28,904 nt of DNA from the IMG/VR virus record IMGVR_UViG_2600254985_000007. One strand, written 5' to 3'. The DNA comes from a virus. Taxonomy: Duplodnaviria; Heunggongvirae; Uroviricota; Caudoviricetes. Below the pieces are notes generated by a model that saw only the letters and a program-made list of their open reading frames with translations, was not told the DNA's origin and ran no database searches. Of this stretch, positions 18,087-21,233 are shown in pieces. Each line of letters opens with the position of its first letter. The first letter of the stretch is position 1. Position numbers and translations under genes: made by a program.

Positions 18087-18308
18087 TTAGGCGGCAAAGA
18101 TACCTGGATATAGAACTTCGCGAGGAAGTCCGGTTACTTCTTCGTATTTACGCATTTTTGTTACTGGAAGGCTGCCACCTCGCTTTTTAAGCATATTGAT
18201 GGCCTGAGGCGTTACGCCGACCTTTTCAGCAAGCACCTTTTGAGAGCCGCCCACTGCATTAATGGCTTTCTCAAGCGGGGTGCTGGCGTTGGATTTTTTG
18301 TTGATCAT
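18087..18308 (-). CDS. cro: Cro-like HTH repressor (YdaS family)
   Basis: 73 aa with HTH ...GSQKVLAEKVGVTPQAINMLKKRGG...; divergent from cI across an operator-containing intergenic region. Confidence 0.85.
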   Translation of the reverse strand: MINKKSNASTPLEKAINAVGGSQKVLAEKVGVTPQAINMLKKRGGSLPVTKMRKYEEVTGLPREVLYPGIFAA

Positions 18309-18425: not shown

Positions 18426-19136
18426 ATGAGCAGCATTTCTGAAAGAATTAAATTTTTACTGGCAAGGGAAGGCTTGAAGCAGCGGGATTTGGCTGAGGCT
18501 TTGTCGACTAGCCCACAGACCGTCAACAACTGGATAAAAAGAGACGCGTTAAGTCGTGAGGCGGCGCAACAAATATCTGAAAAATTCGGTTATTCTCTTG
18601 ACTGGTTATTAAATGGAGAGGGTTCTCCAAAGAAGGATCTGGAGAGCAACATCCCGCCAGAGTCTGAGTGGGGAACTGTCGACGCTTGGGACAAAAATAC
18701 CCCCCTACCTGACGATGAGGTGGAAGTACCGTTTCTGAAGGATATCGAGTTTGCGTGTGGTGATGGACGAGTACACGATGAGGATCACAACGGTTTTAAA
18801 TTGCGCTTTTCAAAAGCAACGCTCCGTCGAGTTGGAGCCAATAGTGATGGTTCTGGTGTCCTGTGTTTTCCTGCATCAGGAGACAGTATGGAGCCAGTCA
18901 TTCCTGATGGTGCAACTGTAGCTGTTGATACTGGTAATAAGCGAGTTATTGACGGCGAACTCTACGCCATCAACCAGGGAGATCTGAAGCGCATCAAGCA
19001 ACTTTATCGCAAACCAGGCGGAAAAATTCTAATCAGAAGCATTAATCGTGATTATGACGACGAAGAGGCCGATGAGGCAGATGTCGAGATAATCGGTTTT
19101 GTGTTCTGGTACTCGGTATTGCGATATCGCCGATAA
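18426..19136 (+). CDS. cI: CI-like prophage repressor (HTH plus S24 LexA-like peptidase domain)
   Basis: HTH ...LKQRDLAEALSTSPQTVNNWIKRD... and C-terminal S24 signature ...PASGDSMEPVIPDGATVAVD...GELYAINQGDLKRIKQLYRKPGGKILIRSINRDY. Start at ATG 18426 with GGAGG SD; the track ORF begins upstream at 18372. Confidence 0.9.
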   Translation: MSSISERIKFLLAREGLKQRDLAEALSTSPQTVNNWIKRDALSREAAQQISEKFGYSLDWLLNGEGSPKKDLESNIPPESEWGTVDAWDKNTPLPDDEVEVPFLKDIEFACGDGRVHDEDHNGFKLRFSKATLRRVGANSDGSGVLCFPASGDSMEPVIPDGATVAVDTGNKRVIDGELYAINQGDLKRIKQLYRKPGGKILIRSINRDYDDEEADEADVEIIGFVFWYSVLRYRR

Positions 19137-19272: not shown

Positions 19273-20139
19273 ATGGAAAACACTGGCTTACACGATGTTA
19301 ATTTTTCACTTAGATATGACGGTTTGGATGCTGAAAAGCATGAGATTGAACTTTCTTCGCTCGGTGAATCGCTAAAGGGATTTTCGAAGATATTAGCTAC
19401 AGCTGGAACCTTCGCATTAACCCAAAAGTACTCGCGAAGCACCTCAACTCAAGAGGTTAAAATTTACGCTACCGAAGCTAGGGCCAATTGTTTTTCTCTT
19501 GATACTATCATGAATTTTATCAGTCAGTCTCAATTGTTCTCAGGGTCTGCGGGGGCTATACTTGGCGCATTAGTGCCTTATATCTTCGCTAAAAACTCGC
19601 AGAAGAAAGAGGAAATGAAATACCTAAAAGAAGCACTTGAGAAGGCAATTGAGGCCCTCGGAAATAAAGATAAAGATACCATCTCAGGTCTAATCTCAGT
19701 GATTGACAAGATGGCTAGTGAGTTACGCCCATCAGTTAGACAGGCAGTTTCCCCCATCGGTACCACCTGTAATAAGATAAGCGTCACACCGGGGAATGGT
19801 TTCAAGCCTGCTGTAATTGATGAGCAAGATAAAGCAGTAATAGACCAGTTGGACGACGACGAAGTTCTTGGCTTAAGGGAGTATCGAATCTTCCTTACTG
19901 AATTCGACGCTCACCGAATGACCGCTAAAGTCATTATAGAAGGTGATGATTCAGATAAGCGCATCTCAGCACAAATAAGCGATCCATCTGCTTCAAAGGC
20001 AGACAACCCGTATCTCATTTCACTTAGTCGTTTTCTGTCAACGGGTCTAAGTCATGAGTCAGCGGTAAAAGTAACTGCCAAAGCAGCAGTTAGAAAAGGG
20101 GCTATTAGTAAACTTTTCATAGTTGATATTGAGCTTTAA
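19273..20139 (+). CDS. hypothetical protein (288 aa), AT-rich cargo gene in the rexAB position downstream of cI
   Basis: ORF with AAGGA SD 6 nt upstream of ATG 19273 (track start at 19270 is TTG); lower GC than flanking genes; followed by an intrinsic terminator; no recognisable family. Confidence 0.75.
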
Positions 20140-20142
20140 CAA

Positions 20143-20166
20143 CCGGCCACCGCGCCGGGTTTTTTG
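20143..20166 (+). terminator. intrinsic terminator ending the cI-cargo transcript
   Basis: CCGGC-CACCGC-GCCGG hairpin followed by GTTTTTTG, 4 nt after the stop codon. Confidence 0.7.
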
Positions 20167-20169
20167 TGC

Positions 20170-20379
20170 CTACTTCACAGCTTTACTACCCTTCCTGACT
20201 ATCTCAGCTGCATCCCTGTTCACACCCTTACCTATCACGTTTCCCGTTTCCTTCCGGTACCGTTCCAGCTTGTCGATGATGTTTTGCTGGGTCATAGGTA
20301 AATCTGCCAGTGACAACTCCATGACCGCCCGCCCCATGGCGTGAACCATCATGTTCACTCTTTCTTCATCCAAGTCCAT
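20170..20379 (-). CDS. hypothetical small protein (69 aa), divergent from PL and convergent with the rex-position gene
   Basis: Strong SD (AAGGAG-N6-ATG); MDLDEERVNMMVHAMGRAVMELSLADLPMTQQNIIDKLERYRKETGN...; no family recognised. Confidence 0.7.
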   Translation of the reverse strand: MDLDEERVNMMVHAMGRAVMELSLADLPMTQQNIIDKLERYRKETGNVIGKGVNRDAAEIVRKGSKAVK

Positions 20380-20433
20380 TACCCACTCCTTTTTGATGTT
20401 TTTTTCAGCATATCACTTATGCCACCAAAAAAT

Positions 20434-20520
20434 AAATCAACATAAAAATCAACAGTAAACGATTAAATCAACAAAATAAATCCACAAGGTGTTGACCTAC
20501 AAATCCACATGATGTTTAAT
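20434..20520 (+). promoter_or_regulatory. OL operator cluster (five direct AAATC(A/C)ACA repeats) with PL-like promoter TTGACC-N17-TTTAAT (20492-20520)
   Basis: Repeats at 20434, 20446, 20465, 20478, 20501 match those in the cI-cro intergenic region; near-consensus sigma70 promoter reading rightward into the early-left operon. Confidence 0.65.
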
Positions 20521-20560
20521 TACTCCATCGAAACGAAACATCGACAGCTGAGCGAAGTTA

Positions 20561-20592
20561 GCCAGCGGCGGACAGCAAGTCGCCTGCTTTTT
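20561..20592 (+). terminator. imperfect stem-loop with T-tract in the PL leader (candidate early terminator or antitermination-associated structure)
   Basis: GCGGCGGAC...GTCGCCTGC pairing with a bulge, then CTTTTT, about 35-65 nt downstream of the predicted PL start. Confidence 0.4.
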
Positions 20593-20936
20593 AACAACAT
20601 GCAGATTTACAGCGTCAATGACCTGTTAAGACCCCTACACGTAAACGTGCTGTATCACCGGGTGCGATCCGGTCGGTGAGAGAGTATCCCCGCGCGAGAG
20701 CGAGAACGGCGTGAGAACGGGCAACACTGGCAGGGAGTTGGCGCTGACCAATACAGGGAATGTTATGGGATGTGGTGAAGGGTTCATGGACGGGAATATG
20801 TCGCACGTAAAGCGGCGAGGCCCGAGGAGCTATTGCCGAAGATAAGTAGGCCGAATCGGGTCGAAATGGGTCTCCCACCTACCACATCGCCAAAGCATTT
20901 CTCCCGCATCAGCGGGTAACGACAGAGGGTAAGGGG

Positions 20937-21233
20937 ATGATCGACGACATCAAGCGCATCGACTCAATGATAAATGCGCTTCGCAATATGAAACAGGACA
21001 TCAAGCGTCAGCAGAAACTAAGTGAAATAAACAGTTTAGACCTGTCGCCGAAGCAAGCTCAAAAGCGCAATGCCGATGCTGACTGGATTGCGATGGAACA
21101 GATTAAGCGTCGGCATGAGCTGCACGCTCTGTCTGTTGAGCTTGGGTTCGCTGAGCGCCGGGAAAGTTATGCTCCATTTGAATTAACTGACGGGTGGCAC
21201 CGATTCGACCACAAGCCGCGCGAACCTCAATAG
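20937..21233 (+). CDS. hypothetical protein (98 aa), first ORF of the early-left operon
   Basis: ORF with purine-rich SD; basic and charged; no clear Arg-rich N-like motif. Confidence 0.6.
   Translation: MIDDIKRIDSMINALRNMKQDIKRQQKLSEINSLDLSPKQAQKRNADADWIAMEQIKRRHELHALSVELGFAERRESYAPFELTDGWHRFDHKPREPQ

Follow-up and report, generated by a model that had tools for sequence, protein, structure and literature searches.

A small immunity-region gene of phage phi80 encodes a probable distant relative of AriR/YmgB and has a predicted promoter against the OL operators

The stretch of DNA analysed here (IMG/VR virus record IMGVR_UViG_2600254985_000007, 28,904 nt; "the window") carries on its minus strand a small gene for a 69-residue protein, located between gene 40A and the left operators (OL) of the CI repressor, from which the promoter PL reads in the opposite direction. 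Over the 2.1 kb around this gene the window is 100% identical, in reverse orientation, to Enterobacteria phage phi80 (JX871397.1). With somewhat better than even confidence, we regard the following as the best overall explanation: the small gene is a missed phi80 gene, its product is an AriR-like connector made from its own promoter against OL, and the protein acts on host signalling.

The small gene is genuine and missing from the phi80 annotation

The gene and its translation signal are placed as follows:

20170-20379, minus strand: gene for a 69-residue protein, a probable distant AriR/YmgB homologue with a three-helix fold (from the list of open reading frames, ORFs)
20386-20391, minus strand: Shine-Dalgarno sequence AAGGAG, 6 nt 5' of the ATG (read from the sequence)

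An earlier note on this DNA, made from the letters alone, had described a 69-residue minus-strand gene with AAGGAG-N6-ATG and a start at 20379, directed away from PL. All of these sequence statements were verified, and the orientation agrees with the annotation of PL at 20492-20520 in JX871397.1. The minus-strand sequence upstream of the gene ends in aaaaAGGAGtgggtaATG, which contains the AAGGAG, and relatives keep a GGAG or GGGG box at the same Shine-Dalgarno position.

The gene belongs to a large family. We found approximately 490 homologues at 90% clustering, from Escherichia, Enterobacter, Kluyvera, Citrobacter and other genera and every one named "hypothetical", and clustering at 50% left 51 representatives from a set of 1.8 billion proteins; a relative is also encoded on at least 319 viral contigs in IMG/VR. 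PHROG 3975, a group of unassigned function, matched over its full length (E = 7.1e-35, residues 2-65 against profile positions 5-68 of 68). No database assigns a function to the gene, which is only "hypothetical" in RefSeq and PHROG 3975. Two candidates were set aside during this collection: a 1312-residue repetitive protein among the representatives (P0158), dropped as a low-complexity, coiled-coil artefact, and a protein 81% identical to that of phi80 on a 1.7-kb contig labelled as a Bacillota metagenome-assembled genome, which probably reflects mis-binning and not a wider host range.

Codon-level comparison of nine homologous loci gave ratios of non-synonymous to synonymous substitution (dN/dS) of 0.04-0.25; relative to one of these loci (L007), the small gene carries nine synonymous and no non-synonymous changes. 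Most substitutions fall in third codon positions of the small-gene frame. Because this bias and the selection fit the minus-strand frame, the antisense plus-strand ORFs could be excluded. Taken together, these data leave virtually no doubt that the 69-residue ORF is a real gene.

The gene is nevertheless unannotated in both phi80 GenBank records, the complete genome JX871397.1 and the early-region sequence X13065 of 1988. Compared with modern phi80, X13065.1 (3955-4205) has a 2-nt and a 1-nt deletion and two substitutions within the small ORF; the deletions truncate the ORF and alter its C-terminus, which is the likely reason why the gene went unnamed; it is likewise absent from the 2012 genome record. 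The 1988 record further gives 40A as 209 residues plus a "40B", as against 288 residues in the modern record. Given the differences in both genes, the historical annotation of the region was shaped by sequencing errors. The RefSeq annotation pipeline PGAP calls the exact 210-nt ORF in a 100%-identical stretch of Escherichia coli DH10B (WP_000362427.1, "hypothetical protein"), and 64 complete E. coli genomes carry the identical DNA, among them those of DH5alpha, TOP10, NEB10-beta, XL10-Gold and JM83 (phi80dlacZdeltaM15 strains).

The protein very probably has an AriR-type three-helix fold

Two alignments were used, A1 with 30 diverse family members and A2 with eight closer sequences. The conserved pattern of A1 consists of A-x-G-x-A-V-x-E-L, followed by KLE..R and then by a near-invariant GNVIGKGxxRDAAExVRxG. 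AlphaFold2 predicted from A1 a bundle of three helices (residues 5-24, 31-44 and 48-67) with high confidence (predicted local distance difference test score, pLDDT = 94.3). The most conserved stretch, GNVIGKGxxRDAAExVRxG, covers the loop preceding helix 3 and helix 3 itself.

A domain search with the single sequence was negative: Pfam, NCBIfam, PADLOC and a phmmer search of PDB sequences all returned no family, and the viral structure library BFVD gave no significant match. The relationship to AriR/YmgB emerged only through the family profile and the structure. In an hmmsearch of PDB sequences with the A1 profile, the YmgB entry 2oxl_A was found with E = 6.7e-5, while the next match had E = 0.36. 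Profile alignment of A1 with E. coli AriR using hhalign gave E = 2.9e-5 and a probability of 73.8% over 50 columns, pairing phi80 residues 14-63 with AriR residues 33-82; the paralogues YcgZ and YmgA gave weaker matches than AriR. The phi80 model can be superposed on the three-helix fold of the YmgB crystal structure. We conclude that the phi80 protein very probably shares both the AriR-type fold and common ancestry with AriR.

One residue deserves attention. In AriR, R74 is a surface arginine of helix 3 whose substitution abolishes SpoT binding while Rcs activation is kept (PMC10704370). At the level of alignment (profile search and hhalign), R74 pairs with phi80 R55, which is invariant in the eight sequences of A2 and is an arginine in most, but not all, of the 30 A1 members.

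The suggestion in the earlier note that the gene could encode a regulator was not borne out in the DNA-binding sense. No helix-turn-helix family was detected in the small protein with Pfam or NCBIfam, although cI and cro of the same window were clearly matched in the same Pfam search; its fold, moreover, matches AriR/YmgB, a connector that binds proteins.

A putative promoter travels with the gene

On the small-gene strand the upstream sequence reads ...TGTTGATTTATTTTTTGGTGGCATAAGTGATATGCTGAAAAAAACATCAAAAAGGAGTGGGTAATG, in which two promoter elements are proposed:

20407-20415, minus strand: putative extended -10 element TGATATGCT, with the hexamer TATGCT at 20412-20407 (from conservation; predicted start near 20400)
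20430-20435, minus strand: putative -35 hexamer TTATTT (weak; 17-bp spacing to the -10 hexamer), within the A/T-rich block ATTTATTTTT

To place these elements we compared 97 loci with 69 distinct upstream sequences, including those of heteroimmune phages and of a distant Erwinia/Pantoea subfamily. The motif TGnTAnnnT, usually TG(A/C)TATGCT, lies 32-44 nt 5' of the ATG in 64 of the 69 sequences. Most of them also keep the A/T-rich block ATTTATTTTT approximately 17 bp further upstream, across immunity types (alignment A3), while the operator repeats beyond the promoter element are of at least six unrelated types. Such conservation is consistent with a sigma-70 promoter of the extended -10 kind that is carried along with the small gene, the A/T-rich block being its presumed -35 region. 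As far as sequence comparison goes, we consider the promoter probably well placed.

Two further observations concern this region. In many relatives (HK639, ENT1 and loci L011, L013, L014 and L016) the base directly 5' of the -10 hexamer is C (TGCTATGCT), where phi80 has A (20412-20416 region, minus strand). This C resembles the preference of sigma-S for C at -13, as in CTATACT; the chromosomal ycgZ-ymgABC operon, to which ariR belongs, is sigma-S dependent. Separately, HK225 (locus L004, 3340-3500) is approximately 97% identical to window positions 20380-20530, which comprise OL/PL and the small-gene promoter. The small proteins of the two phages, in contrast, share just 46% identity, which places a mosaic junction almost exactly at the ribosome-binding site.

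The putative promoter abuts the distal OL half-sites

The repressor sites and PL are arranged as follows, all on the plus strand:

20434-20442, 20446-20454 and 20465-20473: distal OL, three direct AAATCAACA half-sites (repeat search)
20435-20454, 20479-20497 and 20502-20520: annotated CI operators (JX871397.1)
20479-20497 and 20502-20520: proximal OL operators, both dyads AATCCACA-N3-TGTnnAnn overlapping PL (23-bp repeat D1)
20492-20497 and 20515-20520: -35 (TTGACC) and -10 (TTTAAT) elements of PL (JX871397.1)

From the operators of OL and of the right operator region (OR) we derived the half-site consensus AAATCMACA, which occurs eight times in the window against 0.68 expected, a count reached in none of 100 shuffled sequences. 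Five copies lie in OL (20434, 20446, 20465, 20478 and 20501) and two in OR. The three distal AAATCAACA repeats are spaced by 12 and 19 bp, and the nearest touches the putative -35 hexamer of the small gene. The distance of 55 bp between the gene start and the first AAATCAACA repeat (20434), as well as the statement in the earlier note that the upstream region abuts the OL repeats, were confirmed, with 20434-20442 reaching the -35 block. An 8-nt repeat, TGATGTTT, at 20394-20401 that matches the weak half of OL1 has no partner half-site and was therefore judged a chance match.

In each of the immunity types that could be resolved, namely those of phi80, HK639 and L008, an operator or half-site specific to the type adjoins the putative -35 block. 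The OR regions of the latter two confirmed the specificity of their sites (ATAAC-N4-TGAAT in HK639 and ATAGC-N4-GGAAT in the L008 type), both centred near -42.5. At the phi80 PRM, the promoter from which cI is read, the middle operator is centred at -42. The earlier note had proposed a second divergent pair at OL that mirrors PRM/PR; the predicted back-to-back layout, the operators in between and the site at -42.5 to -44, close to where OR2 lies relative to PRM, are compatible with a divergent pair, whereas the mirror image is not exact. Geometrically, then, a divergent promoter pair at OL is a reasonable reading of the sequence. The chances that CI exerts some control over the small gene are about even, and so, as a separate matter, are those that the gene is expressed in the lysogen.

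What would such control do? Lambdoid immunity regions hold genes that are expressed in the prophage, and a promoter with an extended -10 element has little need of contacts at -35. Since the small gene lies in the immunity region and its promoter appears to be of the extended -10 type, expression in the lysogen is more likely than strict repression by CI. The opposite arrangement is nevertheless possible, if the less probable of the two: CI on the distal OL half-sites would occlude the -35 element and silence the gene in the lysogen, and the AriR-like protein, expressed together with PL after infection or induction, would act on the host or, through ppGpp (guanosine tetraphosphate), on the lysis-lysogeny decision; ppGpp affects lambdoid development. 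The contact between half-site 20434-20442 and the putative -35 hexamer is compatible with occlusion, as are the correspondingly placed operator-like sites of other immunity types. However, a site upstream of -35 is a poor position for a repressor of an extended -10 promoter, no operator overlaps the -10 and spacer region, and the gene resides where prophage-expressed genes are found. This alternative and the connector made in the lysogen differ only in the sign of regulation.

Proposed action on host signalling

The reading that we favour can be put as a sequence of steps. The small gene would be transcribed from a separate extended -10 sigma-70 promoter (TGATATGCT, 20415-20407), back to back with PL and with the distal OL half-sites directly against its -35 region. 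Transcription in the lysogen would be either constitutive or tuned by CI bound at approximately -42 to -44. By analogy with AriR, the small protein would bind neither DNA nor the repressor, and would use helix 3 to bind a conserved host signalling protein; through such AriR-like binding the phage would reprogramme its host.

Candidate partners follow from what is known of AriR, which activates the Rcs pathway via RcsC and independently of RcsF, giving mucoidy (increased capsule) and lowered curli (PMC3509220, PMC11709261), and which binds SpoT and raises ppGpp (PMC10704370). Carrying this analogy over, we consider it possible, but doubtful, that Rcs or SpoT is the actual target of the phage protein. 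A still more specific proposal, in which wiring of the promoter to distal OL lets repressor occupancy directly set host Rcs/capsule signalling and/or SpoT-dependent ppGpp, appears improbable.

Several observations weigh against the favoured reading as a whole. Regarding the protein, the phi80 sequence has no Pfam match at E <= 1; the Pfam YmgB family (PF10798) is matched by three of the 30 members, the best at 16.6 bits against a cut-off of 22.3 bits; no more than 25% of residues are identical to YmgB; an N-terminal extension of approximately 30 residues, present in AriR, is missing from the phage protein; and three-helix bundles are common folds. With the Pfam threshold not reached and the extension missing, the phi80 protein is best described as distantly related to AriR or as one of a sister family, outside the present limits of PF10798, and for the same reasons, together with the low identity, shared partners with AriR cannot be assumed. 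Regarding the promoter, a sigma-70 consensus scan found none in 20380-20480, and the putative -35 hexamer is poor. The scan accepts only -10 hexamers with A as their second base and for this reason fails to report the annotated PL as well. Promoter activity in 20380-20450, as implied by the earlier note, is suggested only by conservation across phages. The pattern TGNTATGCT occurs once in the window and is not significant on its own. Regarding CI, the annotated phi80 operator at 20435-20454 is centred at approximately -44, not -42, relative to the predicted start, and the sites nearest to the small gene are direct repeats of one half-site with no dyad, so that the binding mode of a CI dimer is not evident. 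Finally, in the searched text of one paper on phi80 (Lula) lysogens the word mucoidy does not occur.

A search of the literature for AriR-like or YmgB-like phage proteins, DUF2767, and the identifiers of the protein and locus returned nothing; the 1988 transcription papers and the 2012 genome paper were outside its coverage.

The gene is constant where its neighbours vary

The neighbouring genes, as annotated in JX871397.1, and the terminator are given in window coordinates:

18087-18308, minus strand: cro (gene 30)
18426-19136, plus strand: cI
19273-20139, plus strand: gene 40A
20140-20168: GC-rich hairpin CCGGCCACCGCGCCGG between the convergent 40A and small gene (terminator scan and folding)
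20937-21233, plus strand: N

The layout of the region is fixed: a PL operon with N and kil on the other strand, the operators, the small gene, a terminator, a convergent and variable cargo, and an S24-type repressor. The small gene holds the same position in HK639 and HK225 (there annotated "hypothetical"), SW-37 and ENT1, in ten genomes of different species, and at two loci of an Erwinia/Pantoea-type subfamily with 45% identity. The cargo, by contrast, is 40A in phi80, genes resembling HK97 gp48/49 in HK225, a helix-turn-helix regulator and others in HK639, and HicAB in an Erwinia locus; in one relative (L012) it is missing, and cI directly follows the small gene.

This constancy bears on two further explanations, both of which keep the protein within the phage. 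In the first, it would modulate the phage switch (immunity, induction or establishment of lysogeny), as an anti-repressor or a stabiliser that binds, for example, the conserved C-terminal S24 domain of CI, or RecA, CII or Cro. Such a role would suit a short, helical protein that has a single highly conserved surface and is linked to OL and cI at every locus examined, but the protein does not co-vary with CI: between phi80 and HK639 the small proteins are 87.5% identical and the CI proteins 22%, so that a target specific to one immunity type is unlikely. Moreover, phi80 CI has a Peptidase_S24 domain (Pfam) and is inactivated by RecA-dependent cleavage, which would make an anti-repressor unneeded; the sequence upstream of the gene shows no LexA box; and the closest structural and sequence relative acts on the host proteins RcsC and SpoT. 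We therefore rate a switch modulator as unlikely.

In the second, the protein would be a small DNA-binding regulator, for instance a second Cro-like or an Hha-like factor, or a functional partner of 40A. A structure paper of 2007 reportedly proposed a DNA-binding, Hha-like role for YmgB; neither a helix-turn-helix nor any other DNA-binding family was found for the phage protein in Pfam, NCBIfam or PADLOC. As for 40A, which the earlier note had suggested as a partner (the gene in rex position), its adjacency is in favour, but a homologue of 40A lies next to the small gene in none of 14 relatives (BLAST). Since the cargo is replaced by unrelated genes or missing while the small gene stays, a partnership does not hold. 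The two genes are also convergent onto a shared terminator and so are not co-transcribed. As an intrinsic terminator the hairpin CCGGCCACCGCGCCGG, which recurs 3' of the small gene in HK225 and HK639, is good in the direction of the cI-40A transcript and weaker, with the tail UUGUU, in that of the small gene. Taken together, a DNA-binding or 40A-dependent role is very unlikely.

A chance ORF or a non-coding element, such as an RNA gene or a spacer between the terminator and OL, would explain the lack of annotation in both phi80 GenBank records, but we give it a negligible probability in view of the strong purifying selection in this frame, the wide conservation of the family, the confident structure prediction, an Rfam search with nothing credible on either strand, and the 1988 deletions that probably account for the oversight.

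Four side observations concern the neighbourhood. Gene 40A matches Pfam DUF7946 and DUF7947 and PHROG 5147, with a weak match to the PADLOC candidate defence family PDC-S42 (E = 1e-5), and Pfam gives no support to its GenBank label "acetate kinase superfamily domain". It is an obvious candidate for an effect of phi80 lysogens, which reportedly block T4 and interfere with P1 (PMC2885432). Downstream of PL, the first approximately 25 nt (CCATCGAAACGAAACATCGACAGCTG, 20521-20550, plus strand) are nearly identical in the heteroimmune relatives L003, L004, L006, L007, L009, L011, L013 and L015, and are common to N-dependent phi80 and to HK639, which uses a put-like antiterminator RNA. The nutL-N leader (20585-20901, plus strand) is a widely shared non-coding mosaic segment, approximately 95% identical to more than 150 Shiga toxin (Stx)-converting phages, where it is unannotated or "hypothetical". 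On the PL side of a Pantoea/Erwinia-type prophage (L020, 3594-3956, plus strand) we found a protein with an Anti-adapt_IraP domain, another small connector of host signalling; in E. coli K-12, iraM adjoins both the ycgZ-ymgABC cluster and e14.

Significance

Phage phi80 is a classical model phage, partly present in the most used cloning strains, and a conserved gene of its immunity region is absent from its reference annotation. What is new here is a minimal phage-borne connector of probable AriR type, with a predicted promoter of its own against OL; the gene itself was known only as "hypothetical". Although no new principle has emerged so far, the link to AriR provides a specific and cheap functional hypothesis, in which the protein would act on Rcs (capsule, curli, phage adsorption) or on SpoT/ppGpp. 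The distal OL sites may likewise serve beyond PL, by controlling a second promoter or by their position against it, as OR does for PRM.

If the connector hypothesis is true, the phi80dlacZdeltaM15 strains DH5alpha, DH10B, TOP10 and JM83, which retain the gene and cI, carry an extra regulator of Rcs or the stringent response, and full phi80 lysogens, which occur as contaminants in persister and ppGpp studies, carry the same one. An active protein would then bear on biofilm, envelope-stress and stringent-response work in phi80 lysogens or phi80dlacZdeltaM15 strains, and would suggest a phage origin of, or phage traffic in, the AriR connector family. Lysogeny by phi80 is a known confounder of ppGpp and persister work (PMC5727415); to link the small gene to this confounding is speculation.

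Comparison with known systems

The nearest known counterpart of the phage protein is AriR/YmgB (b1166; PDB 2OXL; PF10798), a small connector encoded in the ycgZ-ymgABC operon. The phage gene differs in being encoded singly, without YcgZ or YmgA, and in lying beside a phage operator, whereas AriR is under BluR/MarA control; unlike AriR, the phage family also has an invariant motif of its own, GNVIGKGxxRDAAE. PHROG 3975 and WP_000362427.1 are the same protein family as the phi80 protein, in entries that state no function, fold or regulatory context. DUF2767 (PF10965) is matched by a chimeric family member (P0126) and not by the phi80 protein. In this natural chimera DUF2767 covers residues 1-25 (E = 4e-11), and the rest is of the small-gene family, with 70% identity overall to the phi80 protein. 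This suggests that DUF2767 comprises small proteins of similar size, analogous or related to those of the small-gene family, that enter the same gene by recombination.

In its position, the small gene resembles the cargo genes rexAB of lambda, nun of HK022 and 40A of phi80, which likewise lie between OL and OR, in the part of the prophage that is transcribed in lysogens, and by analogy with them it is plausibly host-modifying. That cargo, however, is variable and co-transcribed with cI, whereas the small gene is constant in heteroimmune relatives, lies on the opposite strand and has its own predicted promoter. In its control region, the closest parallel is PRM/PR at OR of lambda and phi80: in both cases two promoters, one of them only predicted at OL, stand back to back with repressor sites between them, and an operator or operator-like site touches the -35 element of the promoter directed into the immunity region. 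The differences are that the predicted start sites of the small-gene promoter and PL are approximately 127 bp apart, compared with approximately 81 bp for PRM/PR, that the core of the small-gene promoter is free of operators and has no OR3-like site, and that, unlike PRM, the predicted promoter has an extended -10 element and may not need activation.

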